Positions 2,507-45,667 of a stretch of DNA of 64,000 bases are shown here, one piece after another. The stretch covers positions 7,509 through 71,508 of the forward strand of contig JAGLRN010000017.1 in the NCBI GenBank assembly GCA_023136265.1. The letters are read 5' to 3'. Under the pieces are notes generated by a model. It was not told where the DNA came from, did not search any database, and saw nothing but the letters and a program-made list of their open reading frames with translations. Each line of letters begins with the position of its first letter. Position 1 is the first letter of the stretch. Source of the stretch: Thermoplasmata archaeon (GTDB taxonomy: Archaea > Thermoplasmatota > Thermoplasmata > RBG-16-68-12 > JAGMCJ01). Both the position numbers and the translations under genes were made by a program.

Positions 2507-2530
2507 AAAGCGCACGTTTTGCGAAGTTAC

Positions 2531-2552: not shown

Positions 2553-2578
2553 GTGGATTCTGACGAAGTGGTAGGGAC

Positions 2579-3121: not shown

Positions 3122-3149
3122 AGATGCCTTTTCTCCCGAAACGATCCAA

Positions 3150-3206: not shown

Positions 3207-3501
3207 GAAACAGAGGTTCTTCTCATGGACCATCCTCCCACAACCGCTGAGCCCATCCAAGAAGTCTCCTTGGGCCATTCTTGTACCAGAAAGCCTTCTG
3301 AGATGTGTCATGCCTCCTTGAATCCCATGAAGCTTGCTGTGCTCTCCACTCTCGATCCGTCTCACTATGAACCTTGTCTCATCATCATTGAGCTTGTGGG
3401 ACATCCCGGCAGGGGATGTCTCCGTTGTTAATGATCTCGGGATGGCACAGCTCGAGTTCTAGACAGAAAAGCTTATCTGCACTGGTCAGGGTCAAGATTT
3501 C

Positions 3502-4212: not shown

Positions 4213-4283
4213 ACGTCCTTCCAGAGAGCGCTGCGAGAAAGGTTTAAGTGAAATCCCTGGTATCTTATCCGTTGAAGGTGCGC

Positions 4284-7374: not shown

Positions 7375-7495
7375 TCTGCCCGATTTCACGAGCTTTTCAT
7401 TTTCCGAAACCGGTTTCACGAAGGTATGATAGGTCGTTTCAGCCGATAAAGAGGACAATGGTTGCGAGGAGGACCTCGAACCAGGAGGTGAAAGA

Positions 7496-7912
7496 ATGAA
7501 CGCAAGAATAATGGCGGCCTTTGTGGTAATCGCCCTGTTGGGAACAGTAGGGACGGCCTTTGCGCTCGATACCGCTTCGGTCACGAAGAGCAATGCAGAC
7601 GACCAGATGTCAGACACGGGGGAGCAGAACGCCTACACGAACGGCCACGAGTGGAAACACCAATACAAGCCGCAGTGCCAGCACAACGAGGACGGTGCCC
7701 AAGAATCGCAGAACCAGGACATGAGCCAGAACAGGTACCAGTACCAGTACAAGTACAACGAGACGTGCGACAACGACGGAAACCAGTTCAAGCATCAGTA
7801 TAAGAACGAGGGGGAGAATCCGAACGATCCGGACTGCGACCAGAGTCAGGATAGGTTCAGGCACCGCGATCAGGACCACGAGAGGCCAGGGCCAGGGCCT
7901 GATGGGCCGTAG
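7496..7912 (+). CDS. Secreted low-complexity Q/N/D/Y-rich small protein
   Basis: Signal peptide MNARIMAAFVVIALLGTVGTAFA. Repeated HQYK/YQYQYKY motifs, 4 Cys. Followed by a hairpin plus T-run. Confidence 0.5.
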   Translation: MNARIMAAFVVIALLGTVGTAFALDTASVTKSNADDQMSDTGEQNAYTNGHEWKHQYKPQCQHNEDGAQESQNQDMSQNRYQYQYKYNETCDNDGNQFKHQYKNEGENPNDPDCDQSQDRFRHRDQDHERPGPGPDGP

Positions 7913-7940
7913 AACAACGCAAGCTCACCCACTCTAGAAG

Positions 7941-7970
7941 GGGACGCAAGTCCCCACCTTTCCCTTTTTT
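7941..7970 (+). terminator. Hairpin ggggacgcaagtcccc followed by a T-rich tract (cccttttttcg)
   Basis: Perfect 6-bp stem with a 4-nt loop, then an oligo-T run downstream of the 7496-7912 CDS. Archaeal termination typically uses oligo-T. Confidence 0.5.
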
Positions 7971-8059
7971 CGACCTGGATTGCGAAGTCCACAACGGTCC
8001 AGGGGAAAACATTAATACTCAGCCAGGCTCATATAGTTAGAAAGCAGGGGGAGGGGAAC

Positions 8060-10432
8060 GTGCGTATTCCTTTGTATGAGAAAATCTTCGTTACAGCAAT
8101 AGGGGCTTTGTTCCTGACAGGGAGTCTGCTTGCATGTGTGGGAAACATCGCCGATAATAGCGCGGATGATGGAGTCATCATCCAGTCGGGTAGCTATGAA
8201 GGCATTCCATCAGCCGATCCCAATGATGGAAAGTTTGTCTTGATAGCGTCAGCCGTGCATGAAACAATTGAGTCAAAGGTCGTGGCCTATATCGGCATTC
8301 CCGCGAACGAGTCGACGTTCGAGGTGGGTATATTCGACGGCGATGTTGGGCAACATTGGGATTATGTTGGTGACTTGCCAACAAGCTTCACCCTTTACAT
8401 GGACCCGTTGAAGAATGGAACGACCGCCTTATTCGTCGAGAGTTGGAGTAGCAATAGCGGTGTTCTGCCAGATGATGATTGGTACACCGAGTCTTTCTCG
8501 GTCTCTCCCGACGCTCAGGCTCCCAGCGGGAACTACTTCTACAGGCTCGTTGCTGAGTGGGAAGGCGGGACGCCTTCAAGTGGGCTGAACGACTTCAAGG
8601 TCAGGACGACCGGTCAGATTAGCCTTGCAGCTGGTCACGAGTTCGGATTTGCTGGCGGTCCTCAGGCTGGTATCGATCCGGAGTTTGGAACATCGGACAA
8701 CACCTACGACGGCGAATGGTGCTACAACTTTTACGTTCCAATAGCGAAATCCAGAGTTTTCTTCCTCGACGGTGACGCTGACCACATTTACGATACCGAC
8801 GATCCCAACACTCCCAACACTCCCCCTTATGATGAAGGGCAGAATTGGGGGAAGCCTAAGGACGACAATCCGGATCAGAAGTATCGAATCAGTCCGAACA
8901 TACACGTTGTTGTCACAGATCCAGACGGCAACACTTACTTGAACTCCAACCCCTCCGGCAACCAGGAATGGGAAATCTTCAGCATAGGAGACCTCCCCGA
9001 TGATGACTACAGTGTCAACTACTCTTTGTCTCCTGGCCTCTGGAAGTATGAGGTCAAAGGGATGGATGCTCACAACGCCAATTTCCTGGAAACGACATAC
9101 GAGGTCTTCGTATGCGGTTCAACGCCTCCACTTCCTGTGAATCCTCCACCTGAGGTAGAGCCAGACCACGACGAAGACGTGCCTGGAGGCGCAACCTACC
9201 ATTACCCGCACACAGTTACTAACAGGGGTGTCACTCAGGCCTACGACCTCACGGGTGAATCTACTCTCGGATGGTTTGCTGGGATATATGAAGATTCCAA
9301 CGCAAATGGCGTCTACGACGCAGGTGAGCCCGAGGTCGGCATAACACCAGATTTGGACACAAACGGAACCTACTACGTCCTAGTTGCCGTGGACGTTCCT
9401 GGGGGTCCGCCGGGAACCACCGATACGATCTCACTTACGGCGTCTTCTAGAATAGAATGGGCTGTTCAGGACTCAGCCGGCGATGAGATAAGGATAAATC
9501 AACCGCCTGATCCGCATGCAGGAGGTCCCTACCTTGCGGACGAGGGCGATACGGTGACCTTCGACGCTAGTGGCTCGAATGATTCAGACGGAGATCCCCT
9601 GCAATACATGTGGGACATCGATGATGATGGGGTTTTCGAGACCAACTACTCGAGCAGTCCAACATACAGCCATGTATTCGGCGATGACTACAATGGTACA
9701 GCTAGATTGAGGGTAACTGATGGCACCTATGAGGTAGAAGCGTTGTCGAATGTGACGATAGTGAACGTCGCCCCGTCTGTGCTGGGCTACCTCGACTCGC
9801 GCATCCTTACCGGAATCACCTTCCGGATCGCAGGGGAGAAGTGGCACGACGTCGAGTTCTTCCTTTACGAGGACGGAACCGAGGTCGCGTACGCACAAGT
9901 CGTACGTTATCCAGGCAGTCCGGACGATCAGGCCGTCACCTTGTCCGGTCTCAACATATCCCTATCCAGCGAGTACTCCGTCCTCGCACTATACACGCCC
10001 ATGGACGATCCCATAAACGGACAGATATGGGGCTCCACTCCCGCTTGGGTAATCCTGGACTTCGATGACGGTAACGACACGAGGATACATCACACGTTCA
10101 ACGTCATGCACAACGAGACTTGGACGTGGGAGATAGAGAGGTTGAACGAGTACTTCGGGGGTCACAACCTCACGTTCCACGCATCCGCGTATGACCCAGG
10201 AAGCGATGACCTCACCTTCACGTGGGACTGGGACGACAACAGCACAGAGACGCGAACCTACTTCAACAACGGAATTGGTCCTGATCCGTATCCGTCCTCG
10301 GATGTGAATCCAGCCTCAGTAGATGATGTCGCGACTCACTCATTCCCGGGCGGAGGCACGTATGTAGTCACTCTCACAGTGGCCGACGATGATGGTGGCT
10401 CCACTGTCATCACATTTACTGTTAGCATCTGA
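8060..10432 (+). CDS. Large secreted PKD-domain protein, paralog 1 of 3
   Basis: GTG start after gggggagggg SD. Signal peptide with LLAC (possible lipobox). PKD-like segments YMWDIDDDGVFE...VTDG and FTWDWDDNS...TVADDDGGSTV. Long blocks homologous to the proteins at 35631-37624 and 42503-44803. Confidence 0.8.
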   Translation: MRIPLYEKIFVTAIGALFLTGSLLACVGNIADNSADDGVIIQSGSYEGIPSADPNDGKFVLIASAVHETIESKVVAYIGIPANESTFEVGIFDGDVGQHWDYVGDLPTSFTLYMDPLKNGTTALFVESWSSNSGVLPDDDWYTESFSVSPDAQAPSGNYFYRLVAEWEGGTPSSGLNDFKVRTTGQISLAAGHEFGFAGGPQAGIDPEFGTSDNTYDGEWCYNFYVPIAKSRVFFLDGDADHIYDTDDPNTPNTPPYDEGQNWGKPKDDNPDQKYRISPNIHVVVTDPDGNTYLNSNPSGNQEWEIFSIGDLPDDDYSVNYSLSPGLWKYEVKGMDAHNANFLETTYEVFVCGSTPPLPVNPPPEVEPDHDEDVPGGATYHYPHTVTNRGVTQAYDLTGESTLGWFAGIYEDSNANGVYDAGEPEVGITPDLDTNGTYYVLVAVDVPGGPPGTTDTISLTASSRIEWAVQDSAGDEIRINQPPDPHAGGPYLADEGDTVTFDASGSNDSDGDPLQYMWDIDDDGVFETNYSSSPTYSHVFGDDYNGTARLRVTDGTYEVEALSNVTIVNVAPSVLGYLDSRILTGITFRIAGEKWHDVEFFLYEDGTEVAYAQVVRYPGSPDDQAVTLSGLNISLSSEYSVLALYTPMDDPINGQIWGSTPAWVILDFDDGNDTRIHHTFNVMHNETWTWEIERLNEYFGGHNLTFHASAYDPGSDDLTFTWDWDDNSTETRTYFNNGIGPDPYPSSDVNPASVDDVATHSFPGGGTYVVTLTVADDDGGSTVITFTVSI

Positions 10433-32073: not shown

Positions 32074-33165
32074 ATGACGAAATCGAGAGTGGGGAAGATA
32101 TTCCGACATGCTGAGAAGGGCATCGACTGCATCATATTCATGAACGGAACCGAGCCGCTTCTCGACATGACGTTCTTCTACGTTACAGGTTTCACATCGG
32201 GGCTCTTCGAGGGCAGCGCCGTTTTCACACATCCAGATAAATCGATGAGATTGGTGACATCGCTCCTTGAGCGGGAGAGCGCGAGAAGGGCGGACTTCCC
32301 CGTGAGGATATTCAAGAGCATCCAGGAGAGGGAGAAGAAGTTCAAGTCCTCGCTTCGAGGCTGCAAGAGAATCGGCGTGAACTCGCCGGAGCTCACGTAT
32401 CGGAACTACATGTTGCTCAAGAAGCTCGTTCCCAAAGCGGAGCTCATTGACGTATCCGAAGCTGTGATGAAAGCCAGGGTCGTGAAGGACAGGAAGGAGA
32501 TCGCGACGATAAGGAGAGCGTGCGAAATCTCATCCGAGGTCGCCAAGGAAATCATTCCCTACATAGACGTCGGAGTGAAGGAGTACGAACTCGCGGCGAG
32601 GATAAACTTCCTGATGCAGAAGAAGGGAGCGTCTGAACCCGCGTTCGAGACGATACCCGCCTCGGGGCCGAACTCGGCGGAGGCACACTACACGGCGGCG
32701 GACAGAACGCTTCAGAAGCGGGATTTCGTCCTCTTCGATTTCGGGGCCCGCTACAAGAAATACGTCTCGGACCTGACCAGGACCTACGTCCTGGGAAAGG
32801 CGAAGAAGAAGCAGAGGGAGATGTACGAAATCGTTCTGAAGACCCAGAGAAGCGCCATGAGGAGAATCCGACCGGGAGTGAAGGCATCAACGGTCCACAA
32901 TGCAGCCGCGAGGATGATAGACAAGACGAAGTACAGGGGCAAGTTCACCCACGGGCTCGGACATAGCATTGGGTTGTCGGTCCATGATGGAATGGGCTTG
33001 GGACCGTTCTCGGATTTCAAGCTCGAGAAGGGAATGGTCTTCACCGTCGAACCGGGGATATACGTTCGCGGATATGGTGGCGTTAGGATCGAAGACGATA
33101 TCGTCGTAACGAAGGGCGGCTGCGAGTCTCTGACGACAGCCGACCGCGACCTCATCGAGATCTAG
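32074..33165 (+). CDS. Xaa-Pro aminopeptidase/prolidase (M24 family)
   Basis: HGLGHSIGLSVHDG and FTVEPGIY metal-binding pita-bread motifs. Confidence 0.85.
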   Translation: MTKSRVGKIFRHAEKGIDCIIFMNGTEPLLDMTFFYVTGFTSGLFEGSAVFTHPDKSMRLVTSLLERESARRADFPVRIFKSIQEREKKFKSSLRGCKRIGVNSPELTYRNYMLLKKLVPKAELIDVSEAVMKARVVKDRKEIATIRRACEISSEVAKEIIPYIDVGVKEYELAARINFLMQKKGASEPAFETIPASGPNSAEAHYTAADRTLQKRDFVLFDFGARYKKYVSDLTRTYVLGKAKKKQREMYEIVLKTQRSAMRRIRPGVKASTVHNAAARMIDKTKYRGKFTHGLGHSIGLSVHDGMGLGPFSDFKLEKGMVFTVEPGIYVRGYGGVRIEDDIVVTKGGCESLTTADRDLIEI

Positions 33166-33665
33166 GACTGGAACTCTCGCACGATCTTTGGCGGGAAGCG
33201 CCCGGTCTCGATGTCCTTGATTATTCGGGCGACGGTCTCCCTTGCTAGCGACACTTGCTCTTCAGTTATCCAACCCTTCTCGATGGCTTCTTGAAACTCG
33301 TCCTCATCGAGTATCTCGTACCGCATGTCAGGCAGGACAAACACGTCGAGGTAGAGATCGATGATCTCATACCCTCCCTCGACGCGAGAAGGCTCAGTGT
33401 TCACGTTGCAGAAGTAACCCGTGAGGTTCCCATCCTTGTCTGTGACTACGATGATTTCAAGTGGAGGGTTGAAGAACTCGAACAACAGTGCACGATAGCC
33501 CTCTGCCACGACTTCCTGACCGTGTATGATCAACGGCCTTCTGAAATCGATGAAGTCGAACCGCGTTATGACAAGGTCCCCTCGGTCCTCAACCAATTCC
33601 TGCTCGTAGTCGAACGTCTCGCCGTGTGGCCTAATCACCCTGACAAGCACGACCCACAAACGCAT
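33162..33665 (-). CDS. Hypothetical protein, DUF402-like
   Basis: IDLYLDVFVLPDMRYEILDEDEF resembles the DUF402 acidic motif. Weak. Confidence 0.45.
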   Translation of the reverse strand: MRLWVVLVRVIRPHGETFDYEQELVEDRGDLVITRFDFIDFRRPLIIHGQEVVAEGYRALLFEFFNPPLEIIVVTDKDGNLTGYFCNVNTEPSRVEGGYEIIDLYLDVFVLPDMRYEILDEDEFQEAIEKGWITEEQVSLARETVARIIKDIETGRFPPKIVREFQS

Positions 33666-33677: not shown

Positions 33678-35561
33678 CTACTCAACCGGTGGTTCTTCCT
33701 TCTTCCTGCGCTTGATGAGCACGAGCACAACCACGAGGGCCGCAACCACCATGAGCGCTATCGCCGCATACAAGACGTAGTCGAATCCCTTGTCATCTCC
33801 TTCATCATCCACGGGCGGATGGCTGTGCGGATCGTCGGGATCGGTCCCGTTCTGATACTCGACGAGGTTGGAGAACCCATCCCCATCTAGATCTTCATCG
33901 GCATCGGAGGGATCCAAGGGATCAAGAGAATTCGAGTGCTCCCAACCATCCGGCATCGTGTCCTCATCGGTGTCGTTGGACAGCGGATTCGTCCCAAGTC
34001 CATCCTCCGTCTCATCGGACAACCCATCACCGTCATCATCCAGGTCGCTGAAGTCTGGCTCACCGTCTCCGTCAGTGTCCAGGATGTCTCCCTCAAAGAT
34101 CTCCGTATGTGAGAGGTTCATGTCGACGCTCCTGTTGTGGTATGCGAAGAACAGAGTGGGGTGAGTAACCGTCACCATCGTGGTATTATGCACTCTCACA
34201 CCGTCTTCGTAGGTCTCGTGGGCAACCGTGACGTCTCGCACGTATCCCTGGACGTTGGTGACGTTGGAGAAAACGGATACACCGTTGTCTGTGATTTCAA
34301 CCGTGACATTATCGACTGGGTCCGACGTCTGGTGCTCGATGGTGTGGACGGTCAAGTAGTTCTTAACGAGGAGATGACAGGCTGGACAACCAGATCCTGC
34401 GGAGACCTTCCCGCCAAAAGTGGAGTTGACCACGACCAGAGCAGAACCTGACTCGAGGAAGAAATCCCTCAACGCCCCACTTATCGTCGAGTTGTAGAAA
34501 GTCGCGTCACCTTCGTAGGCGTACACGCCATCATCCACACCCGATATGTTTGCACCTTCGATGGTGCCAAACGAAGATCCGAGTCTCAGGCCAACAATGC
34601 TGCCTTCCGAGACATCGCCTAGGGACTGAACATTGGTGAAATCCAGGTGGAAGCCCACCTGCTCGTTTCCCCGGGCTACATTCATCCTGCTGATTAAGAG
34701 GCCGCTGCCCCAGGAATAGAAGCCAGCTACGTTATTGATGGCGGTGTTCGCAATCAGGACGGGTTGCGAAACAAAGGACCGCAGTCCATAAGTGTTGCCC
34801 TCCATCGTGTTGTTGCAGATAAGCGAAGTTGAGGATTCTAGTCGTATCCCGTGAGTGTTACTCATGAAAGTGCTGTTCTGGATTGTAACGTTCGTGTTTC
34901 GGACGTATGCACCGTTTTCCGTGTACGCGACCCTCACGTAGTTGAATACTGACGACTCACTGCCTGTGTCGAAGTACACGCCGTCCCAGTCCCCCTTCTG
35001 GGGCTCTGAGGAGTTCGAGGTGAAAATTATCATTTGGTTCCATGACCCCTGAGCGACCAAGGTTCCTGCAACAGAGAGCCTGGTTCCATTGTCAAACGCG
35101 ATAGTCGCTCCCGGATCGATGGTGAGTGTCGCATTAGCACCGACGACCAAATCCCCCTTGACAACCCTCGTGGAAGAGTCCCAGTGGTCGTCCACGACCT
35201 CGAAGGACACATTGTGGTAGAATACGTCAGGAAGCTGTGTATAGCTCGCGTTGACCCACCATGTCCCCGTCTGGTTAGCGGTGTAATTGCTTCTTGCGAG
35301 TCCGCCGTCGTCAGGATCGGATGCCACAGTGTGGACGAGCGAACCGGTAGGGTCGTACCACTGGAAATCCACATCGTTAAGCTCAGATGGCGGCGAGCCC
35401 GTGAAGTTCAGTAGCGCACCCGCCACGACCTTGGATTCGTTCACATAATCCGAGACCACTGTCACGATGTCGCTCACAGTAACAGCTGCTCTCACGTTGA
35501 CGCCGGCGAACGTGCTCGTGACAAGGATTGCCATGATGGTGATGGCAAGGCGGCTTTTCAT
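33678..35561 (-). CDS. Cell-surface right-handed beta-helix glycoprotein with TSP3-like Ca-binding D-rich repeats and a C-terminal TM anchor
   Basis: Signal peptide MKSRLAITIMAILVTSTFAG. More than 25 N-x-S/T sequons. PbH1-like repeats (NNTMEGNTYGLR, ANTAINNVAGF). DTDGDGEPDFSDLDDDGDGLSD repeats. C-terminal LYAAIALMVVAALVVVLVLIKRRKKEE. Confidence 0.75.
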   Translation of the reverse strand: MKSRLAITIMAILVTSTFAGVNVRAAVTVSDIVTVVSDYVNESKVVAGALLNFTGSPPSELNDVDFQWYDPTGSLVHTVASDPDDGGLARSNYTANQTGTWWVNASYTQLPDVFYHNVSFEVVDDHWDSSTRVVKGDLVVGANATLTIDPGATIAFDNGTRLSVAGTLVAQGSWNQMIIFTSNSSEPQKGDWDGVYFDTGSESSVFNYVRVAYTENGAYVRNTNVTIQNSTFMSNTHGIRLESSTSLICNNTMEGNTYGLRSFVSQPVLIANTAINNVAGFYSWGSGLLISRMNVARGNEQVGFHLDFTNVQSLGDVSEGSIVGLRLGSSFGTIEGANISGVDDGVYAYEGDATFYNSTISGALRDFFLESGSALVVVNSTFGGKVSAGSGCPACHLLVKNYLTVHTIEHQTSDPVDNVTVEITDNGVSVFSNVTNVQGYVRDVTVAHETYEDGVRVHNTTMVTVTHPTLFFAYHNRSVDMNLSHTEIFEGDILDTDGDGEPDFSDLDDDGDGLSDETEDGLGTNPLSNDTDEDTMPDGWEHSNSLDPLDPSDADEDLDGDGFSNLVEYQNGTDPDDPHSHPPVDDEGDDKGFDYVLYAAIALMVVAALVVVLVLIKRRKKEEPPVE

Positions 35562-35630
35562 GTGACCAAGACCATGGTTTGCACTATATATTCGTTTCCT
35601 GAATGGCTGGCAAACGGTAGAAGTCCTGGC

Positions 35631-37624
35631 CTACTTGCGGCCAGGGACGAGTCCCCAGTAACCTATGCTGTGCCCATACTCGTTGTTCAGGTGGTCAGCT
35701 ATCTCCGTCGCAGTCGCGTACTCGCCATTATCGTACAGGTCCATCAGGTGGTCCAGCGCTTCCGAGGCCGTCATCTCAGTTCCGTCGGGGAAGGTAACAA
35801 CATCATCGGAACCTACAGTCCCGCTGCCGACGTTGTATTCCCAAGCTGTGATCTGAAGCAGGGCCAACTCCCCCTGGTTGGCGCCTCTGCCTCCCCCTCC
35901 TCCCCCCGTGGGACAGATATCTCCTTCCCCGACCGTAATCGTGGTCGTAACGGTGGCCGAGCCACCATCATCATCGGTTACAGTGAGAGTGACTACATAC
36001 GTTCCAGGTGAGCTGTAAGTATGAGTCTGAGTGTCCTGGACATTGAGCGGCGGAGTAGTTCCGCCGAAGTAGGGCTCGTACGGACTCGAATCGGGATCGT
36101 TAGGCGGCACTCTGGAGGGGTCATAGTAGTAGGTCGTGGTCGTGACGTTGCTACCGTCTCCCCAATTCCATGTGAATGTCAGGTCATCGCTGCCTGGGTC
36201 TGTTGCCGATCCAACGAAGGTCAAAGGCGCACCTACGAGTGCCCCGATGTTGATATCAACGATCCAAGGCTCCACGTGAATGAAGTGCTCGCTGTCCCTC
36301 TCGATGGACTGCTGCACGTTGAAGGTGTGTTTTATCTTGCACTGTCCACCCTCCGCGAAGTCCAGGATTATCCAGACGGGATTGGCTCCCCACAGCTGTC
36401 CGTTGATGGGCTGATCGCCCATTATCGCGTCGTTGAGGTCCTCGTACGGATCGTATGTGACCACCGCGGTATAGTTGACGGAGTCACCCGCATCCAGGCG
36501 AATCGTGATACCCTGGTCCCCAGAGCTTGGATTGAGCATCGGGTCCCCAGGCCACCTCTCTACCTCGATGTTGGCGGCTATGTCATCGTACTGGCCGGTC
36601 TCCCTATCGTAGTTCTCGTAGAGAGTGAGCTCCACATTGTGCCATTTCTCTCCAGTGACTCTCAAGAAAACCGTGACCTCGACGTACGCTCCCTCTATCG
36701 TTGCAGTCGGATCCACATTCAGTACGTCCACATAGCCGAAAGCCGTCCCCGTCAGGCCATCATCATCCGTCACGGTGAGTTTCACTTCGGTGTAGTAGTC
36801 ATCGTACCAGATGAACGTCACGATCGGGCCCGTCGCGTCGACATCGTTGTCGTAGATGCCATCGCCATCACTGTCGACAAACACGTCAAGGTCCCATTCG
36901 TAGCTGACTATCGTGCCGTCAGGGTCGGAAGAACCGGAACCGTCAAGTGTGACCAGATCGCCCTCGTGGATTGTTTCCGGGGTTATGACGATATCAGGCA
37001 CCGGCGGCTCCTCATCCTCGGGTATCATTGCCGAGGAAATGAATGTCAGGTCATGACCGTTCGGGGTCTTGTAACCCGTAACGGGGTCGAACGCGTCGAA
37101 GTGGATCTCGAAGTACTCATCTGGATCTGGGCCCAGCGTCACTGTCGTGTCGAGTCTCACGGTAGTCTTGCCAGGAAGTACCTCAGGCTCGTAGAAGTAT
37201 ATGTCCCAGATTGCTTCGTCTCCTGAGTATACATGATGCTTCCCTCCCCAGGCCTCATCAAACGGATTGAACTCCGTGTTCCCGAAGTCAGGGAGGTATG
37301 ACGCTTCACCCTCAATGTCTATGCTCACAAAGTCATCCGATGTCGTCCAGTTGTGAATCGCAATGGCGATTCTCAAATCGGTGAGATCATCATTTCCTCT
37401 GTTCTCGACAATCATCTCAAAAGTGCAGACAACATCTGGGCCAAAGTCACAATAGGTAACCCACCCACCAGCTTTCCAACCTCCGCCTTTCGCTCTTTCG
37501 CCAGGATCAGCGTTCAGCCAGATGTGGGCACCACCCCCACCGCCTGCAAGAACTGCCGGGAGTAGGGCAAGCATCATCATAGAAGCGCAGGCTAGAGCTA
37601 CGGTTCTCTTCACGTTCTCTCGCA
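35631..37624 (-). CDS. Large secreted PKD-domain protein, paralog 2 of 3, with a distinct C-terminal domain after a GGGGGG linker
   Basis: Start MRENVKRTVALACASMMMLALLPAVLA (ATG about 37624 after a ggaggaaggtg SD); the track ORF is extended to 37919. PKD segments (YEWDLD..., FTWNWGDGS...TVTDDDGGSATV). GEKWHNVELTLYEN block shared with paralog 1. Confidence 0.75.
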
Positions 37625-37650
37625 TGTCTTTCACCTTCCTCCAAACCCCA

Positions 37651-37740
37651 AGAGGCTGTGTCCGCGCCGAGTTGGAGCGTGCGTGTGGGCGAAAAGACGC
37701 CCCTCCTCGACGCCTCGTTGGACAGCCTCCCCCTTTTTTT
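37651..37740 (-). promoter_or_regulatory. GC-rich nested stem-loop element plus A8/T8 tract in the leader region of PKD paralog 2 (possible structured 5' UTR or small ncRNA)
   Basis: gaggctgtgtcc pairs with ggacagcctc, enclosing gggcg-aaaaga-cgccc and gcgccgag/ctcgacgc. It is followed by cccccttttttttg and lies between a TATA-like tatataaaag (37772) and the minus-strand ATG. Confidence 0.35.
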
Positions 37741-37928
37741 GGAAGCTTATGCACTCCACAAATGAGTCTGGGGAGTATATAAAAGCGGACTGGAAACCAT
37801 CCTGAATGATACCACATACCAGGCCATGTACCACGCGGTTGAAATCTGGATTGAGGCATAAAAGCCCAGCCTCGCTCTTCCGGCAATGCGAAAGTAATAT
37901 ATTCGGCGTAGTCAATCATTAGACAAGT

Positions 37929-40460
37929 GTGGGCATGAAATTTCGAGCACTTCTAGTCCTGACGGTCATCATCATTCTGTCCTGTTTTGCGAAGGACGTC
38001 TCGGCAGCCCTGACTGTGACCAACGTCACAGTGACCATGGATCGCTCCACTTTCTATGCCAACCAGTCAACTGCTACTGCAACAGCTGTCATAGAGTACA
38101 CGGCGGGCGCAGCGAAGGATATCGGTGATGTTAGTTTCACTTGGTTCAGACCAGATTGGAGCATAGCCGCCATCAGGATAGACACGGGAAAGGATGATGC
38201 GAACGCCACAAGCGCCATAACGGTCGACATGGGCGGCACATGGCACGTGAACGCCACTTACGTGAACCAAACAGACCAGTTCGACAACGTATCATTTGAA
38301 GTGGTGAGCGCTGGGGTCGTCGTTGTTTCTGACATGGTTCTAGTGGTGAACGCCCCCTATTTCGAATTGGGTGAAACGGTTGTCGCAACTTCGGCTCTTG
38401 ATTACGCAGGGAATGTCAGTCTCTTCGTGGCAGTCGATTTCACATGGATCGACTCCTCGAGCGCAGTTGTGAGGTCGATGAATGTTGTTCCCAATTCAAC
38501 TGGTGTCGCGATAGACACCTGGGGATCCGACAGCGTGGGCCCTTTCCTCATGTATGCGAACTACACGGGAGACGCACCGGTTTCCAGGTCGGTCAGCTTC
38601 GAGGTTTTCCCCACGAGGGTGAGGACCTGGCATAATCTCAGTGTCGTCGTGGATGAGGTCTGGGACTTGGCTGGAGAGCCGTACGGTGTCTGTGAAAACA
38701 TCACAATCGAGGCGGGATCAACGCTCACAATTGAAGCGGGCGTCACCGTGAGATTCTGCGAAGACACTCACATGACCGTGGACGGCGCGCTGGTCTCCGA
38801 TGGATCTCTGGATTCTTTCGTGAACTTCACCGCATTCGGCTTCTTCCCGCCAAAGGGTTACTGGGGTGGCATCATCGTGAACCCCTCCAGCGGTAGCTCC
38901 AGTAGCATCACCCACTCCCGGGTGAGCTTCGCATCAATCGGCATGCTGATAACCTCTGCAAGCCCAACCATCGAGAGAAGCTCGTTCGAGAATATAAGCA
39001 TCGCGGCCATCCAGTTCGATAATGCCACTGCGAATGCTGAGTTCAACTCGTTCGACGATGTCGGCAGAGGGATCTCCGCATCGGCTTCGGACATCGGGAT
39101 GAGGTTCAACACCTTCTCCAACGTCATGATGGGATTGGCCCTGATCGATTCCAACGCCACGCTACACGGAGACACCATCTTCAATTCGACGTCATTCGGA
39201 ATCCACGCATTCAACAGCTCCATTTCCGCTTCCCAGATCAACATCTCGCTCTCCGGCGGTAGCGCGATCAGACTGCAGTCCCAATCGCTTGCGATCATCG
39301 AATCATCTGTCATTGAGAACAGCTGGTACGGTGTCGATGCCTTCTCATCGACCTTCCACGTGAACGAGAGCAGCCTACTCACGAACGACAACGCTGTCAG
39401 GGCGAACGACGGGCAGGGAGACCTGGTTAACACGAGCATCCTCAACTCCGTGGACTTCGACTTCACGTTGGAAGGTGGAAGCTCAGTGATCGCACTCAAC
39501 TGCACGCTCAATGACAGCAAGGTCCAGGTGCTTCCAGCTTCGCGGCTCACCGTGAAGTACTTCTTGGATGTGCAGGTTGCAGACGAGGGTACCGGTGATC
39601 CAATCGGGAACGCCTTTGTGGAGATTCTGGATGATGGCTCCAGTATCTTCTCTTCGAGGACACCTTCGAGCGGCAGGGTGAGATGGATTCCCGTCACTGA
39701 CAGGATATTTGACGGAGCCGACACGCCAACAAAGCACAATATAACGATCAAGATCAGAAAGGATGGATATGACATCGTGGAGCCCGAGAGGACTGTCGAT
39801 ATGTACACATCCCGTCTGGAGGTCTTCCTCGCTACGGAGGCCATTCAAGACATATGGGAGGAGGTTCTCGATCCATTTCTCCTAATGATCCTCTTGATTG
39901 TCATCGCAATTGTGGTCGCCGCCGCCATCATGGTTCGAAGGAGGACAAGGGAGGAAGAGGAGATTGTCCCTGAGAAGAAGGTCCGCAAACCTACTGACTA
40001 CACCCTTAAGAAGGGCACGAGCTATCTTGTCGCTGGGGAGAAACCCGATCTCGCTTTCGGGATATTCTCGAATGCCATCAAAGGCGGAGCTAGCGGACTG
40101 TGCATCACAAGGACGTATCCCGACGAGGTCTCCGAAGAATACGACGTGGGAGATGCCCCGATTCTATGGCTCTCACGAGACTCCAGGCGGGCCAACATTA
40201 GTCCCACGAATTTGGGCGCGATAATCCTTGAGGCGCAGAGGTTCCTCAAGAAGGAGGAGGGCAAGGAGACGATTGTGATGCTCGATGGCATCGAGTACCT
40301 CATCGTCCAGAACGATTTCTCCAAGGTCATCAAGTTCGTTCAGACCTTGAAGGATACGATTTCCGTGGCCGGGTCCAAGCTCCTCATCCCGTTCAACTTG
40401 GCCGCATTGGAGGAATCGAGGCGGGCGTTGCTGACCCGCGACTTGGAGCTATTGGAGTGA
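37929..40460 (+). CDS. Cell-surface beta-helix glycoprotein with a TM segment and a C-terminal cytoplasmic DUF835-like domain
   Basis: Signal peptide MGMKFRALLVLTVIIILSCFAKDVSA. N-terminal domain paralogous to the 33678-35561 protein (TWHVNATY...NVSFEVV). Many PbH1-like repeats. TM LLMILLIVIAIVVAAAIMV. Tail with GLCITRTYP...WLSRD...LDGIEYLIVQNDF...LIPFNLAAL...LLTRDLELLE, matching my recollection of DUF835. Confidence 0.75.
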   Translation: MGMKFRALLVLTVIIILSCFAKDVSAALTVTNVTVTMDRSTFYANQSTATATAVIEYTAGAAKDIGDVSFTWFRPDWSIAAIRIDTGKDDANATSAITVDMGGTWHVNATYVNQTDQFDNVSFEVVSAGVVVVSDMVLVVNAPYFELGETVVATSALDYAGNVSLFVAVDFTWIDSSSAVVRSMNVVPNSTGVAIDTWGSDSVGPFLMYANYTGDAPVSRSVSFEVFPTRVRTWHNLSVVVDEVWDLAGEPYGVCENITIEAGSTLTIEAGVTVRFCEDTHMTVDGALVSDGSLDSFVNFTAFGFFPPKGYWGGIIVNPSSGSSSSITHSRVSFASIGMLITSASPTIERSSFENISIAAIQFDNATANAEFNSFDDVGRGISASASDIGMRFNTFSNVMMGLALIDSNATLHGDTIFNSTSFGIHAFNSSISASQINISLSGGSAIRLQSQSLAIIESSVIENSWYGVDAFSSTFHVNESSLLTNDNAVRANDGQGDLVNTSILNSVDFDFTLEGGSSVIALNCTLNDSKVQVLPASRLTVKYFLDVQVADEGTGDPIGNAFVEILDDGSSIFSSRTPSSGRVRWIPVTDRIFDGADTPTKHNITIKIRKDGYDIVEPERTVDMYTSRLEVFLATEAIQDIWEEVLDPFLLMILLIVIAIVVAAAIMVRRRTREEEEIVPEKKVRKPTDYTLKKGTSYLVAGEKPDLAFGIFSNAIKGGASGLCITRTYPDEVSEEYDVGDAPILWLSRDSRRANISPTNLGAIILEAQRFLKKEEGKETIVMLDGIEYLIVQNDFSKVIKFVQTLKDTISVAGSKLLIPFNLAALEESRRALLTRDLELLE

Positions 40461-40489
40461 AGGGTTTAATATCCGCACACAATTGACCG

Positions 40490-41215
40490 ATGGAAGGCAT
40501 GAAATCATACAGAACCTTCGTCAAAGGCCTCGATGAGGAAATCGAAGGGGGCATCCCCCAGGGTCATGTTGTTCTTATCGCGGGTCCTCCAGGGACGATG
40601 AAGTCGAGCTTGGCGTACAGCATGCTCTACCACAACGCCGCCAAGAAGAAGATTCGCGGCATGTACTTCACGCTCGAGCAGAGCAGGAAGAGTCTAGAGT
40701 TCCAGATGTCTCGTCTGAAAATGGATCCGAAGCTGGTCATGGACACTCTCAGGGTACAGGACCTGTCGAGGATAAGAAAAGGAATAGACGAGGTCAGGGG
40801 AAGACCCAGGTTCGGCAGGGAGGTCGAACGCCCCTGGTTGGAGGTTCTGAAGAAGATTCTCGAGGACATGAGAGATACTGAGAAGTACGAACTCCTCGCG
40901 ATAGACTCTCTGCCCATCCTCGAGATAATCTCAAAGCTCAAAGACAGAAGGATTCAGCTCTTCCACTTCTTCGAGTGGCTCAGGGACCTCGGGCTGACCA
41001 CGTTGATCATCACAGAGACATCACCTCAGATAGGTGAGGTCCACGACGAGGACTTCCTCGCCGACGGAGTCATTAATATACTCATGGAGAAGGTCGGAGA
41101 CATAGATGTCTACCGACGGATAAGGATCGTGAAGCTCAGGGGAGTGAACCACAACACTGGGTTCTTCACGCTCGAGTACAAGCAGGACCGGTTCCAGGTC
41201 TCTCAGGTGATCTAG
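40490..41215 (+). CDS. KaiC-like/RecA-superfamily ATPase with a non-canonical P-loop (AGPPGTMKSS)
   Basis: KaiC-domain layout: GGIPQGHVVLIAGPPGTMKS, FTLEQS, Walker B LLAIDSL. The Gly preceding the P-loop Lys is replaced by Met. Confidence 0.8.
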   Translation: MEGMKSYRTFVKGLDEEIEGGIPQGHVVLIAGPPGTMKSSLAYSMLYHNAAKKKIRGMYFTLEQSRKSLEFQMSRLKMDPKLVMDTLRVQDLSRIRKGIDEVRGRPRFGREVERPWLEVLKKILEDMRDTEKYELLAIDSLPILEIISKLKDRRIQLFHFFEWLRDLGLTTLIITETSPQIGEVHDEDFLADGVINILMEKVGDIDVYRRIRIVKLRGVNHNTGFFTLEYKQDRFQVSQVI

Positions 41216-42444
41216 GGCTCCTCGAAGAGATTCATGTATTTTATCACGGCAAGCTCTTCAGGCGTGTAGTCCTTCCTCTTTTCGAGCCCTTCTAGACCCT
41301 TTGTCGAGATCAGCTTGAACGACAGCGGGTGCCCCTCCGTCAAGCTGAAAATCCTCTCAAACTCCTTCTTCTCGATCTTCCTTTTGAGGAGCTTCTTGCA
41401 GCTCCTCTTGTCAAGCCCATCAAGGATGACCTCGCTAAGCGCCCCCCTCGCGAGCAGTTCCCTTTCCTTCGGTATGTCCCCGTTCTCGGAGATTAATACA
41501 ACCTTGGCCTCCGAGCTCCTCTCGACAACCTGGAGGACGTGATAGAATACCGTCGCCAGTTCAGGGGACATCTCCGCAAGGTCGTCGAAGAACAGCATGG
41601 CACGCGTGTCCTTGAGTCTCGTTGCGAGCGCGCCCAAAGCACTCCTCAGGTCTCTTCCCCCGCCTTCGAGATAGTCGCCCAATCCGGGCTTTCCAAGTTG
41701 CCCGAGGAAGGAAGAGAATGCGCCCAGAAGTGTCTCGGGGGTGTCCCACTGCCTGAAGGAGTACCAGAACAGGTTCAATCGGTTCTTGGACGCCGCATAG
41801 ACACGAGCCGCAAGCGATGACTTGCCCATCCCCTCAGCCCCGCGGATAGCCAGTATCTTGCCCTCAGATGCTTTCGTCCAGTCCTCGATCTCCTCCATCT
41901 CCTTCTCTCTTCCGTAGAACGGTTCCGTGAGAACCAGACCCTCCGCGAAGGACAGGAATCTCTCCTTCTTCTCGGAAGGCCTCATCTCCAGGTCCTCTAT
42001 GTTCAGTATGCCGCTGTCGTCCGTCCTACAGATGACCTCCGTTAGCGTGTGGCGAACCCCGACGTGCTTGTCGATGTCGAGGAGAGAGACCTCCTTGATG
42101 GAATCATCGTCCTTCCGTATCTTCACCCTCTTCTTCAGGACCTCCTCTTTGACTCGCTCGGCGAGACTGTATCCGTCCTCCGTGTAACCGTAGACCTTTC
42201 GCTTCCTCAGCTGTCCTCTCACCCTTCCCATGGCCTCGGTGACCAGGTCCTCCTTCTTCAGCTGAGAGATGGCCCTCGAAACGTGATTGACACGGATGCC
42301 CGTGGAGCCAGCGATGCCCTCCTGGGTGAGCCCAGAATGCACGTCCAGGAGATCCCTCGGCTGAGGAGTCTCCCGCAGATGAAGGATTATCTTCTCCTTG
42401 GCGGTCAGGTCATTCCTAGTGAGCCATTCTCCCCTTTTGACCAT
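41212..42444 (-). CDS. wHTH plus archaeal AAA ATPase (Arch_ATPase/PF01637-like) putative regulator
   Basis: N-terminal HTH (LTQEGIAGSTGIRVNHVSRAISQLKKEDLV), Walker A IRGAEGMGKSSLA, Walker B MLFFDDL. Confidence 0.7.
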   Translation of the reverse strand: MVKRGEWLTRNDLTAKEKIILHLRETPQPRDLLDVHSGLTQEGIAGSTGIRVNHVSRAISQLKKEDLVTEAMGRVRGQLRKRKVYGYTEDGYSLAERVKEEVLKKRVKIRKDDDSIKEVSLLDIDKHVGVRHTLTEVICRTDDSGILNIEDLEMRPSEKKERFLSFAEGLVLTEPFYGREKEMEEIEDWTKASEGKILAIRGAEGMGKSSLAARVYAASKNRLNLFWYSFRQWDTPETLLGAFSSFLGQLGKPGLGDYLEGGGRDLRSALGALATRLKDTRAMLFFDDLAEMSPELATVFYHVLQVVERSSEAKVVLISENGDIPKERELLARGALSEVILDGLDKRSCKKLLKRKIEKKEFERIFSLTEGHPLSFKLISTKGLEGLEKRKDYTPEELAVIKYMNLFEEP

Positions 42445-42502
42445 AATATTCCGAAATCGGATTGGTCACGCCCATTAAAAACCTAACGCTGGTTCCGCGA
42501 GG

Positions 42503-44803
42503 CTAGGGTGCATAGAGGTCCACGGTGACGCTGATGAGCGTCTCACCACCGTCATCGTCAGCGACCGTGATGACCAAGCTGTACGATCCCTCGGCCCAGT
42601 AGGAGTGACTGGCGCTTATCCGTACGTCGAATGGGTAGTTGCCATATGGGCTGTTTGGCGGGTCTGGTGCCAGGCCGTCATTGAAGTACGTCTCAACGTC
42701 GCTTGATCCATCGCCCCAGTCAATGGAGACGATTATGTCGTCACTTCCAGGATCGTGAATGTCAGTAGACAGAGAGACCTCGCCAATCGCGATGTTGTTC
42801 CCGTTGTTGATATCGTCAGCCACCGTCTTCACGTCCTCGAACTCGCTCTCGTTCGTCGAGGTCATGAGGATGTCTTCCGCCCACACAAGGATGTCCCCAA
42901 GGGTCGTTTCGTTCTGTCCGGGAGGCCTTGCCTGCGTCGTGAAGTTCAGCTTCCCGGACGCTACGTTCAACCACAGGGCCATCAACTGACCCTGGGCCCT
43001 GGAGTGCACCTCCTCTCCGGACGCCCATTCGAGCACAGTGCAGACATCATCCTCCGTGCTGACGTACGCGAAGAGGTCGGAGTTCGAGCTTATGAAGAGT
43101 ATCAGGTCATCGGTGATGCCCGTGTGGTTGCCGTAGGGTTCTGTGACGGTGCACTGATGGTTCCAGAAACCCTGCGTCCTGGGCTCGAGTACCGTGACAG
43201 AATAGACGAAGTTCCCTACAGTCGGATCCACGTTCTGCACCAGCAGAGGCACGTCCACGGTTTCCGAGTCCCCGTCATCGTCCACGACCGTGACCTGGAT
43301 TCCGAGGTTGAAGTCATCCCCATAGACATGGGAATCTGCGAAGTCGCCCGTTGCATCAGGTTCCTGGTTCTCTTCGGCGACGAGCGGTGCGCTGGTCTGA
43401 CCGTCGTTCCAGTCAATAAGGGCCGTGTGCGTGTCAAGCCATCCAGGGTCGTAGAAGGTCACGTGGACAGTGAACGATTGCCCCTCATCGATGGTCGACG
43501 GCTGGACGGTGATGGTGTCTATTGTCGGTGCGACATTGAAGCACCGGTAGTGCGTGGTTGTCATATCGCTCATCTCGTCATCGGAGACCTCCACGGTGAC
43601 ATCCGTCTCGTAAGGGCCGTCCCCGCAGGTCAGCTGAACAATTGGAAGAGAGGACCAGCTCGTGTCCCAAGCACCGTCGTGATCAAGGTCCCAGCGGTAC
43701 TTGAGCAGGTCGCCGTTCGGGTCGGAGCTACCGCCCGCATCGAGTAGGATGTCCGCCCCTTCATCCACCTCATACGGACCTCCGGCGTTGGCGACAGGCG
43801 GCTTGTTCACTCTGTACACCTCGATCAGCGGTTTCGCTGAATGGGAGTCATTCGACCCATCGTGGTCCACGTCCGCATATGCCCGCGGCAGGAAGTACCT
43901 TCCAGCCAACAACTTGGGAGTAACGAGCGTGTAGCTCAGCAACACCGTGTGGTATGGCGTGGGAGTCAAGTCATCATGGAAGCTAACGTCCGCCGCGGAC
44001 ACATTGACCTTCCATCTGATCGTCTGCGATCCGTCTGGATTGCCCACAACGGCATCAGGTGCCGGAACGATGGACCCCGGAACGTAGGAGTAGCCCATTG
44101 GAATAGTGTCCTCGATCACCGAGTTCACCGCGTGTGGGGGATTCGTGACACCCGGCCCGTAGATGGCCAGATTGGTGACAGTGAGCGTGATGGTGATGTT
44201 GTGGTTTATGGCATCCTCGACGTTCTTCCACAGAGGGGTCTTGCCCACAACGAGCGTAGGATGCAGGTCGAGGTAGTCCCATATCTCGTCGTTCGTGGGG
44301 TTTGGACCCTGAGCGATCTCCTGAAGTGCATAGGGCATTATCTCTCCCCCGAGGAAGATCGTAGCGCCATATTGGGTCCACTGCCTGTGTTCTGTGCACC
44401 ACCACACGATCGACCCTGGAGGCGCACCATCGCCGTACTCGTAGTCTAGGTAAGAATACGGGTCTACGACGGCACTCGTCAGAGCTCCATCCTGAGTCGT
44501 CTGAGGATTCCAAGATTCCAGGGGATGAGGACTCAAGAGCATCATCATCTCGTTTATGTTGACCTTGATGCTTCCGGAATTGGTCACCCTGAACACCGAC
44601 GGATAGCCGTACTGATTGACCTCCGACGTGATTTGGGCCCATCCTTTGGCGTAAGCTTCCCAGATCTTGATCATGTCAGGCATAGGCTGAGGTCCCAATG
44701 GGTCCTCCAGTCTCGCACTCGGTTCGGTTGCGGGTTCCGACACTGCGATCGCGGACGAAAGTAGCAGTATCGCGAACACCGACATCGTGGCGATTTTCTT
44801 CAC
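42503..44803 (-). CDS. Large secreted PKD-domain protein, paralog 3 of 3
   Basis: Signal peptide MKKIATMSVFAILLLSSAIAVSEP. PKD segments (KYRWDLDHDGAWD..., IDWGDGSSDVETYFNDG...ITVADDDGGETL). C-terminal block homologous to paralog 1. Confidence 0.8.
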   Translation of the reverse strand: MKKIATMSVFAILLLSSAIAVSEPATEPSARLEDPLGPQPMPDMIKIWEAYAKGWAQITSEVNQYGYPSVFRVTNSGSIKVNINEMMMLLSPHPLESWNPQTTQDGALTSAVVDPYSYLDYEYGDGAPPGSIVWWCTEHRQWTQYGATIFLGGEIMPYALQEIAQGPNPTNDEIWDYLDLHPTLVVGKTPLWKNVEDAINHNITITLTVTNLAIYGPGVTNPPHAVNSVIEDTIPMGYSYVPGSIVPAPDAVVGNPDGSQTIRWKVNVSAADVSFHDDLTPTPYHTVLLSYTLVTPKLLAGRYFLPRAYADVDHDGSNDSHSAKPLIEVYRVNKPPVANAGGPYEVDEGADILLDAGGSSDPNGDLLKYRWDLDHDGAWDTSWSSLPIVQLTCGDGPYETDVTVEVSDDEMSDMTTTHYRCFNVAPTIDTITVQPSTIDEGQSFTVHVTFYDPGWLDTHTALIDWNDGQTSAPLVAEENQEPDATGDFADSHVYGDDFNLGIQVTVVDDDGDSETVDVPLLVQNVDPTVGNFVYSVTVLEPRTQGFWNHQCTVTEPYGNHTGITDDLILFISSNSDLFAYVSTEDDVCTVLEWASGEEVHSRAQGQLMALWLNVASGKLNFTTQARPPGQNETTLGDILVWAEDILMTSTNESEFEDVKTVADDINNGNNIAIGEVSLSTDIHDPGSDDIIVSIDWGDGSSDVETYFNDGLAPDPPNSPYGNYPFDVRISASHSYWAEGSYSLVITVADDDGGETLISVTVDLYAP

Positions 44804-44873: not shown

Positions 44874-45248
44874 TCAGACCGCCCTCATGAGGACGCGATC
44901 CCCGCTCAAGACTTTTCCTAGCGATAGGGCATCACCCTCCGGTTTGCCGAAGACATTGACGTTCTCGTACGCTCGGGGCTTGTCCGAGACGCTGACCGGG
45001 GTCCTTCCGAAGAACACGGCTATCGCCTTTCCAGCGGGCCAGAAGGCGACCTCTCCCACCTCGATGTCCTGACGACCATGCTCCTCCGGAATCTCCAAGG
45101 CCGTGGCGAAATAGAACTCGTCCCCCCACCTGACCGCCTCTCCCTCGATTGGCATGTTGTCGATGACGATCTCCGCTGTCCGGGGGTTTTCGTCCGTGAT
45201 TTCTCCCTCCAGCGTGATGTCCCCCGCCACCAGCTCGAAGCGGCTCAT
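44874..45248 (-). CDS. Cyclophilin-like superfamily protein (TM1367/DUF369-like)
   Basis: MSRFELVAGDITLEGEI...AVRWGDEFYF...GEVAFWPAGKAIAVFFGRTP...NVFGK pattern. The track ORF is extended to 45362. Confidence 0.5.
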   Translation of the reverse strand: MSRFELVAGDITLEGEITDENPRTAEIVIDNMPIEGEAVRWGDEFYFATALEIPEEHGRQDIEVGEVAFWPAGKAIAVFFGRTPVSVSDKPRAYENVNVFGKPEGDALSLGKVLSGDRVLMRAV

Positions 45249-45250
45249 CG

Positions 45251-45667
45251 TCAAACACCGATGTCGATGAAGGGCGATATTCCCAAGACTTTCACAAGGA
45301 CCAGGTTGAAGATGTACACAAACAGGATGATCAGGAATGTGACTATGAACGATTCCAGCCACTCGTCACCCAGGCTTGCTTCCGAGATTATGAGGAACCT
45401 AACGGTAATCATCAGTGCAAGAAAGGCGACGAGAATCCCTATGACCGCGTCCGTTAGGAGACCGGCGAGTAGCGGGACGATCACGACCGCCATTGCTGCC
45501 GTGATGAAAAGCCTGAGCGCATAGCTCGCGGTCACAACCTCCTCCCTCGTCACGAGCCTTGTCGCGATGTACAGGAACAGCATCACGATGAGCACCGTGA
45601 CGATGAAGAGGACCACGCTCACAATATCCATCGATATCGAGATATCCGCCATGCAGTCCGTAATCAA
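45251..45667 (-). CDS. Hypothetical membrane protein (4 predicted TM helices)
   Basis: Hydrophobic segments throughout. No recognised family. Confidence 0.5.
   Translation of the reverse strand: MITDCMADISISMDIVSVVLFIVTVLIVMLFLYIATRLVTREEVVTASYALRLFITAAMAVVIVPLLAGLLTDAVIGILVAFLALMITVRFLIISEASLGDEWLESFIVTFLIILFVYIFNLVLVKVLGISPFIDIGV

Follow-up and report, generated by a model that had tools for sequence, protein, structure and literature searches.

The window analyzed here is a 64,000-nt stretch of contig JAGLRN010000017.1 from an uncultured Thermoplasmata archaeon. Our subject is a block of six genes within it that encode two beta-helix proteins (A1 and A2), two secreted PKD proteins (P2 and P3), a KaiC-like ATPase and an ATPase with a winged helix-turn-helix (wHTH) domain; a third PKD protein, P1, is encoded outside the block. 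All seven open reading frames (ORFs) named in a preliminary description of this DNA, which was made from the letters alone, are present in the window. The six genes fall into three predicted transcription units: P2 followed by A1, A2 followed by the KaiC-like gene, and P3 followed by the wHTH-ATPase gene. The genes and features are as follows, in window positions.

33678–35561, minus strand: A1, 627 residues, surface glycoprotein candidate
35631–37625, minus strand: P2, 664 residues, secreted PKD protein
36225–36725, minus strand: GEKWH domain of P2 (residues 301–467), between two PKD domains
35634–35903, minus strand: C-terminal domain of P2, about 90 residues, after a GGGGGG linker; shortened version of the helical GYW domain found in P3
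37626–37934, no strand assigned: divergent promoter region between P2 and A2
37935–40460, plus strand: A2, 841 residues, predicted type-I transmembrane receptor
40490–41215, plus strand: KaiC-like ATPase, single-domain, 241 residues
41212–42444, minus strand: wHTH plus PF01637/AAA_16 STAND-like P-loop ATPase, 410 residues, regulator candidate
42503–44803, minus strand: P3, 766 residues, secreted PKD protein
42767–43240, minus strand: helical "GYW" domain of P3 (residues 522–679)
8060–10432, plus strand: P1, 790 residues, PKD paralog outside the locus

P2 and A1 share a strand, with P2 upstream and a gap of 69 nt between them, and the KaiC-like gene begins 30 nt downstream of A2, likewise without a change of strand. 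The wHTH-ATPase gene is downstream of P3 on one strand and converges on the KaiC-like gene, with which it overlaps by 4 nt. The boundaries first given for A1 (33678–35561, minus), A2 (37929 or 37935 to 40460, plus), P3 (42503–44803, minus) and P1 (8060–10432, plus) agree with ours; the P2 boundary at 37624 was out of frame by one base, and the gene starts at 37625. Public gene calls likewise give P2 664 residues, taking the Met ahead of the signal peptide as the start, and a longer ORF reaching 37919 would run over promoter blocks conserved in a nine-locus alignment. A2 has 843 residues if the GTG at 37929 is taken as its start and 841 from position 37935. An exact look-up of the 843-residue, GTG-start form returned no match; the 841-residue, ATG-start form was matched, and eight public contigs from metagenome-assembled genomes (MAGs) or metagenomes encode the identical product. 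Neighboring genes include those for TBP, ribosomal protein S17e and Rpr2.

The two beta-helix proteins share much of their extracellular architecture. A1 consists of a signal peptide, one N-terminal module of about 100 residues, a right-handed beta-helix and a C-terminal beta-rich region, followed by acidic TSP3-like Ca-binding repeats, one transmembrane (TM) helix and a KRRKK tail. Hydropathy analysis places its hydrophobic segments at residues 5–23 and 592–620, and its isoelectric point is 4.2. Pfam detects NosD in A1 (5.8e-07; 29.6 bits against a cut-off of 23.6) and, weakly, TSP3_bac. A2 comprises a signal peptide, two N-terminal modules, a beta-helix, a beta-rich stalk, one TM helix and a cytoplasmic DUF835 domain; its Pfam Beta_helix match scores 37 bits against a cut-off of 25.9. 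Among the NCBIfam profiles, para_beta_helix matches at 19.6 against 19.45. A search of PDB sequences with an A2 profile gave no match. BLASTP aligns the two proteins over beta-helix and stalk (5e-33, 28% identity over 494 residues) and aligns the N-terminal module separately (4e-15), in which the motif reads GTWWVNASY..HNVSFEVV and GTWHVNATY..DNVSFEVV, so that their proposed paralogy, with a shared N-terminal module and beta-helix, is well founded. The proposal that they differ in their membrane attachment also holds, as A1 has a TM helix only and the single TM segment of A2 (residues 640–671 by hydropathy) precedes DUF835 (1.7e-29).

Both ectodomains are densely decorated with N-glycosylation sequons, as the preliminary description had it. 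A1 carries 22 and A2 carries 24, compared with 7.4±2.5 and 7.5±2.4 in shuffled sequences (an enrichment of about 3-fold in each case); 23 of the A2 sequons lie in the ectodomain, and at 17 of the 24 positions the sequon is also present in 80% or more of 13 orthologs. A1 also shows the generic features of a surface protein (signal peptide, C-terminal TM helix, sequon enrichment, acidic isoelectric point), and we read it as a probably N-glycosylated beta-helix protein with a C-terminal membrane anchor. The label S-layer-like found no support from homology: no S-layer family appears among the Pfam or NCBIfam matches of the locus proteins. Moreover, P2 and P3 lack the sequon enrichment of the beta-helix proteins (3 against 3.9 in shuffles for P2 and 7 against 6.1 for P3; P1 is mildly enriched, with 13 against 6.7), which argues against all of these proteins forming one glycosylated S-layer-like coat. 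Both A1 and A2 resemble NosD/CASH-type archaeal surface proteins in their NosD and Beta_helix matches, signal peptide, acidic sequon-rich ectodomain and C-terminal TM anchor. They differ in that we see neither enzymatic motifs nor copper or N2O-reductase maturation genes here, and in that one paralog, A2, is fused to a cytoplasmic signaling domain.

That domain is the most conserved part of A2. DUF835 (PF05763) matches residues 708–838 of the 843-residue form with 102.8 bits against a cut-off of 33.1 (E 1.7e-29), and the assignment is also precomputed on A2 orthologs. Table 2 of a census of archaeal signal transduction (Galperin et al. 2018, PMC5847659) lists DUF835 as an inactivated KaiC (iKaiC). 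At the P-loop position the domain reads VAGEKPDLAF, lacking GK[ST], in A2 and in 13 orthologs; judged by its letters, this degenerate nucleotide-binding loop cannot be a Walker A motif. The neighboring KaiC-like protein matches Pfam KaiC (PF06745; 7.3e-35, 120.8 bits against 26.6) and KaiC in the PDB (3.4e-21, P-loop aligned), and it has a Walker B motif (LLAIDS) and the TLEQS sequence. In its Walker A motif, GPPGTMKS (residues 31–38), the Gly that normally precedes the catalytic Lys is replaced by Met. Among our comparison loci, which carry L-numbers, this variant is kept in every KaiC that follows the present DUF835 subfamily (L007–L023, L091 and L093), whereas KaiCs beside other DUF835 proteins (L031, L032 and L035) retain GxGK[ST]. 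The protein does not class with the circadian KaiCs: it has a single domain, scores 89 against 408 and 44 against 546 at the equivalog cut-offs, and has no kaiB-like gene near it in the A2 neighborhood tables. A cytoplasmic DUF835 (iKaiC) domain together with an adjoining KaiC-like gene is the layout of a transmembrane receptor, and A2 is for this reason most likely better read as a receptor than as an anchor, one that most likely signals through the KaiC-like ATPase.

The second of the two regulators that the preliminary description placed in the locus is identified by Pfam as the wHTH plus PF01637 ATPase. Its ATPase_2 and AAA_16 matches score 37.9 bits against 33.2 and 33.9 against 32.6, and HTH_Crp_2 (1.3e-05, 25.5 bits) falls just under its cut-off of 27. 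The sequence reads GAEGMGKS at Walker A and LFFDD at Walker B, and orthologs adjoin KaiC in L021, L022, L091 and L093 (28–35% identity). An anti-phage defense role was considered and rejected; PADLOC returned only two P-loop-level mad8 matches (E 2e-4 and 7e-4).

We scanned GTDB species genomes with an A2 alignment, screened the resulting 80 loci by tblastn, and added three loci (L091, L092 and L093) by way of distant P2 orthologs. The six-gene order is kept in orthologous loci whose A2 is 47–72% identical. It extends further: L093 has the whole block with identities of 29% for the A2 ectodomain, 57% for KaiC and 35% for the wHTH-ATPase, and L091 has the whole block between different flanks and with two inserted genes (A2 ectodomains 26–29% identical in L091 and L093). 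Partial versions also occur. L015 and L018 carry P2 (56%), A1 (33–35%) and A2 (30%) in another context, and L017 has a P1-like gene just upstream of its A2-like gene. L021 and L022 combine a truncated DUF835 protein without an ectodomain, KaiC (60%), a wHTH-ATPase (28%) and a PKD protein in which P3-like and P1-like parts are fused. In L012, L013, L018, L091, L092 and L093, the gene after the P2-like one is A1-like. About 60 remaining DUF835 loci have no PKD-cassette neighbor, and KaiC adjoins DUF835 in only five of them; the link to PKD-cassette proteins is therefore specific to this DUF835 subfamily. The comparative genomics that had been proposed thus finds the block recurring in distant relatives and in different contexts. 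Since gene order is kept in distant relatives, the genes belong together, and the description of a cell-surface locus with paralog families stands. The block consists of two separable sub-modules, P2→A1 and DUF835–KaiC/wHTH-ATPase–PKD, which the A2 fusion links in this lineage. Two further genes were considered as members and excluded, a DUF402 gene (33162–33665) and a cyclophilin-like gene (44874–45362), both absent from the L091 and L093 versions.

Several comparison loci hold related proteins of other designs. A giant ORF without a significant Pfam domain lies between the P2-like and A1-like genes in L015 (1158–5798, minus strand, 1546 residues) and L091 (9857–14713, plus strand, 1618 residues). 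P3-like and P1-like sequences are fused in L021 into one PKD protein of 1108 residues (7017–10343, minus strand), and the DUF835 protein of that locus (3918–4988, plus strand) consists of a TM-like remnant and DUF835 only, its annotated N-terminus overlapping a TldD gene. Beside the distant A1-like gene of L018, a 640-residue protein (1298–3220, plus strand) combines extracellular DUF11 repeats with C-terminal HTH domains (HVO_0163-type and HTH_24) and looks like a one-component transmembrane transcription regulator. The A2-type receptor of L091 (4704–7694, minus strand, 996 residues) has extra PKD domains and a TSP3-like acidic stretch; the latter is 55% identical to A1 residues 527–582, pointing to domain shuffling between the A1 and A2 lineages.

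The spacer between P2 and A2 contains blocks that, in the nine-locus alignment, are kept in loci whose A2 is only about 30% identical. Within window positions 37660–37830 they comprise the GC-rich GCCCCTCCTCG, TATATAA, CTGGAAAcCAcC and the direct repeat TACCAcaTACCA (37810–37821), and a further block, GAAAGTAATATAT, lies about 35 nt before the A2 start; the blocks are candidate operator sites. The window has a single copy of the TACCA repeat TACCAcaTACCA. A P2 transcript that depended on the TATA box would have a leader of about 125 nt. A structured RNA in this leader was considered and not retained (RNAalifold −12.8 kcal/mol with a positive covariation term; no Rfam match). The element AAGCTTAT..CACT, found both ahead of P3 and between P2 and A2, was also dropped as an operator, being not above chance and poorly conserved.

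Taken together, these features lead us to favor, as the on-balance probable reading, that the locus is a conserved Thermoplasmata cell-envelope module in which surface proteins are under KaiC-type signaling. The A2 ectodomain would bind an extracellular partner of the type that its paralog A1 binds, with a glycan, a polymer or the PKD proteins themselves as candidates. Binding would alter the engagement of DUF835 with the KaiC-like ATPase, and the signal would reach transcription, most simply via the adjacent wHTH-ATPase, with surface-protein production being adjusted as the outcome. The analysis shows the domain architectures, the paralogies, the predicted topology, the enrichment of sequons and a conserved gene order; who binds whom, and in which direction the signal runs, we infer.

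Several observations weigh against this reading. Our own comparisons agree with a kinship of DUF835 and KaiC, but not strongly: hhalign of DUF835 against the partner KaiC family is weak (probability 11%, E 0.003), although it brings the P-loops into register, and an AlphaFold2 (AF2) model of DUF835 from a shallow alignment has low confidence (predicted local distance difference test score, pLDDT, 60). Nevertheless, the Foldseek matches listed for that low-confidence model, which speak for the kinship, are almost entirely RecA-superfamily ATPases (Rho, RecA, KaiC and FlaH), with KaiC chains highest (TMq 0.50–0.55) and archaeal FlaH (4yds) at 0.49. The P-loop variant of the KaiC-like protein could mean that its ATPase activity is altered or lost. 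The TACCA repeat is not in the P3 or P1 promoters, and no common operator was found among them. The A2-like gene of L015 and L018 has no KaiC, wHTH-ATPase or P3 beside it, and one MAG carries its P2–A1 pair (L092) and its DUF835–KaiC block (L022) on different contigs; by these splits, the two halves need not adjoin. Finally, housekeeping flanks are kept equally well in close relatives, where conservation is largely ordinary synteny. This last point and the separation of the halves in some genomes would suit a locus whose genes are neighbors through inherited synteny only, the surface proteins and regulators being functionally unconnected. We consider that very improbable, as the block is found again between different flanks (L091) and where ectodomain identity is 26–30%, PKD-cassette neighbors are confined to this subfamily among 80 DUF835 loci, and the genes are tightly spaced, with the short gaps and the overlap given above.

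The PKD proteins supply the remaining parts of the block. P2 consists of a signal peptide, an N-terminal beta-rich domain, a PKD domain, the GEKWH domain, a terminal PKD domain, a poly-Gly linker and a truncated helical domain. In P3, a signal peptide and an N-terminal region with a DUF11-like stretch precede two PKD-like domains, the helical GYW domain and a terminal PKD domain. PKD_4 scores 70.5 bits in P2 (1.2e-19), 50.6 in P3 (2e-13) and 63.5 in P1, against a cut-off of 27. The claim that P2 and P3 are paralogs of P1 on the strength of two shared sequence blocks stands in full for P2 and in part for P3. P1 carries the same C-terminal PKD–GEKWH–PKD cassette as P2 and aligns with it across the cassette, GEKWHxVExxLYE included (BLASTP 2e-52, 37% over 375 residues), and all three have the SDD..W.D.S..TV.DDDGG block in their terminal PKD domain; P3, however, matches P1 and P2 in its PKD domains only (2e-17 and 2e-16) and lacks the GEKWH block, having the helical domain in its place. 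P2 and P3 have a signal peptide and no other hydrophobic segment by hydropathy, in keeping with the earlier remark that the PKD paralogs lack TM anchors. The P1 N-terminus (8060–8160; FLTGSLLACVGN) reads as lipobox-like (SLLAC), and P1, unlike P2 and P3, may be lipid-anchored. The product of the gene just upstream of P1 (6802–7374, plus strand) has two TM segments and a cytoplasmic wHTH (DUF7343/MarR-like) and is another membrane-tethered regulator adjoining a PKD-cassette gene.

The cassette of P2 is widespread. P2 has more than 1000 relatives, and its orthologs form about 60 clusters of 575–600 residues at 46–62% identity that lack the C-terminal domain. In more than 100 further clusters, GEKWH and the terminal PKD domain sit about 90–100 residues from the C-terminus behind varied N-terminal heads, including PQQ and other beta-propellers, Kelch, VWA, FG-GAP, GH43 and GH32. 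The GEKWH domain has no Pfam match and no PDB match by profile. DUF7359 was rejected as its identity, as weak DUF7359 matches fall elsewhere in those proteins and no GEKWH sequence matches DUF7359.

The C-terminal domain of P2 had been called unique, but it shares homology with the inserted domain of P3: BLASTP aligns it with P3 residues 584–674 (E 0.007), and hhalign of the two ortholog profiles gives a probability of 76% and E 2.2e-5 over 92 columns. It is confined to a close clade (P0015–P0021). The N-terminal PRTxGYWxxQC segment is missing from it, and its last residues are IGYWGL; the missing start and this ending could reflect a permutation. A word-index search with the P3 helical domain gave one protein, and we therefore used exhaustive phmmer with that domain as the query, which returned 185 clusters at E≤1e-3 and 62 at E≤1e-10, all named members being archaeal. 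The consensus of the family is PRTxGYWxHQC…DHxGI…S.VF…VC…QLMALWLNVxSGKL…ELERAKDIADxINNG. Among 147 copies, 45 end at most 10 residues from the C-terminus of their protein and 66 are followed by 60–130 residues (one PKD length). No Pfam family covers the GYW domain in ten full-length members scanned. An AF2 model from a 31-sequence alignment has six helices and pLDDT 94.3, and Foldseek found no match for it in the PDB (best E 1.2). The P3 equivalent of L093 carries the GEKWH cassette instead of GYW, and the GEKWH and GYW domains thus occupy the same slot.

These architectures invite a reading in which A1 and A2 are passive membrane anchors comparable to S-layer stalks, onto which P2, P3 and perhaps P1 dock non-covalently. 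The Sulfolobales have a two-component S-layer in which the slaA–slaB operon encodes an anchorless secreted protein followed by a C-terminal TM anchor protein, SlaA being held on SlaB. By analogy, the gene for an anchorless secreted protein (P2) is here followed by that for a TM-anchored, probably glycosylated protein (A1), and P2 lies directly upstream of A1 in every context with a P2 ortholog. Docking would fit the presence of signal peptides without anchors in P2 and P3 and the archaeal surface glycoprotein features of A1 (acidic isoelectric point, C-terminal TM helix with a basic tail, 3-fold sequons). The PKD–X–PKD module also behaves as a docking tag would be expected to, being a common C-terminal part of more than 100 proteins whose heads vary. 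The comparison has limits, however: there is no sequence similarity to slaA–slaB or to any known S-layer family, P2 (664 residues) is much smaller than SlaA and not sequon-rich, P2 and P3 lack the sequon enrichment of typical S-layer canopy proteins, and a sensor paralog and regulators are attached. A passive anchor would, moreover, have no need of the conserved signaling-type cytoplasmic domain and KaiC partner of A2. We therefore hold the passive-anchor reading of the locus to be unlikely, and docking of P2 onto A1 in itself to be possible.

The heads that accompany the cassette bear on another alternative, a substrate-acquisition locus in which the beta-helix proteins are pectate-lyase-like depolymerases or binders of a glycan or polymer, the PKD proteins are accessory exoproteins for binding or degradation and A2 is a substrate sensor. 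Such a locus would be analogous to a polysaccharide-utilization locus with a hybrid sensor. Weak Pect-lyase_RHGA_epim and NosD matches would agree with it, as would cassette-bearing relatives with GH43, GH32, PQQ, Kelch and VWA heads and the peptidase genes nearby (M24 and TldD). PKD proteins are also among the most transcribed predicted extracellular "peptidases" of sediment Thermoprofundales (PMC6461988). We nonetheless find this alternative quite unlikely: A1, A2, P1, P2 and P3 yielded no catalytic domain or motif, conserved transporter or catabolic genes do not accompany the block from one context to the next, and the neighboring ABC-2 and M24 genes are not retained in L091, L015 or L018.

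A more far-reaching possibility, which we regard as a long shot, would unite display with sensing. The PKD–X–PKD cassette (X being GEKWH or GYW) would be a Thermoplasmatota-wide tag for non-covalent display, its receptor the A1/A2 ectodomain, with A1 holding the coat proteins on the membrane and A2 reporting coat occupancy via iKaiC–KaiC and the wHTH-ATPase. One C-terminal cassette on many N-terminal heads within one phylum recalls, by analogy, the dockerin–cohesin system and the C-terminal domain of the type IX secretion system, but PKD–X–PKD has no homology to either, and no cognate receptor or secretion machinery has been found for it.

Elsewhere in the window, PolD small-subunit-like and Orc1/Cdc6 genes lie near its start (252–1763, plus strand, and 5391–6623, minus strand), where there may be a replication origin. 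GC skew changes from about −0.1 (44–50 kb) to +0.13 to +0.17 (52–64 kb), with a cumulative minimum near 50 kb; this switch may reflect a shift in the strand on which most genes lie, or it may mark a landmark of replication.

Signaling modules of archaea that pair KaiC-like ATPases with inactivated KaiC domains (DUF835, MEDS) were reportedly proposed by Makarova, Galperin and Koonin in 2017. The present block is similar in that a DUF835 output or adapter domain adjoins a single-domain KaiC-like ATPase, in an archaeal setting common in Thermoplasmata, and in that a sensor domain is fused N-terminally to DUF835. It differs in its input, a large, probably glycosylated extracellular beta-helix ectodomain rather than REC or PAS, in the conserved GTMKS P-loop of the KaiC partner, and in its fixed position beside PKD-cassette proteins, a paralogous non-signaling ectodomain protein and a wHTH–PF01637 ATPase. 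The types of part are already known, namely beta-helix and PKD surface proteins and DUF835/KaiC signaling; new here are their conserved combination, the KaiC P-loop variant and two unannotated cassette domains.

KaiC-like ATPases are thought to be major archaeal signaling hubs, and, to our knowledge, almost none of their inputs or outputs has been tied to a concrete cellular process; DUF835 is hardly mentioned in the literature we searched. The block described here offers a defined, conserved case, in which an extracellular sensor and its non-signaling paralog occur with a dedicated KaiC variant, a DNA-binding ATPase and adjoining candidate targets. Two uncharacterized domains are a recurring feature of the C-terminal ends of many Thermoplasmatota exoproteins, and one of the two has a confident predicted fold and no solved relative. 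If PKD–X–PKD were indeed a display tag read out by A2, the result would be a feedback-controlled exoprotein display system in archaea without a cell wall. PKD exoproteins of abundant uncultured sediment archaea are highly transcribed (PMC6461988), and how such proteins are displayed and regulated bears on the interaction of these archaea with particles and polymers.

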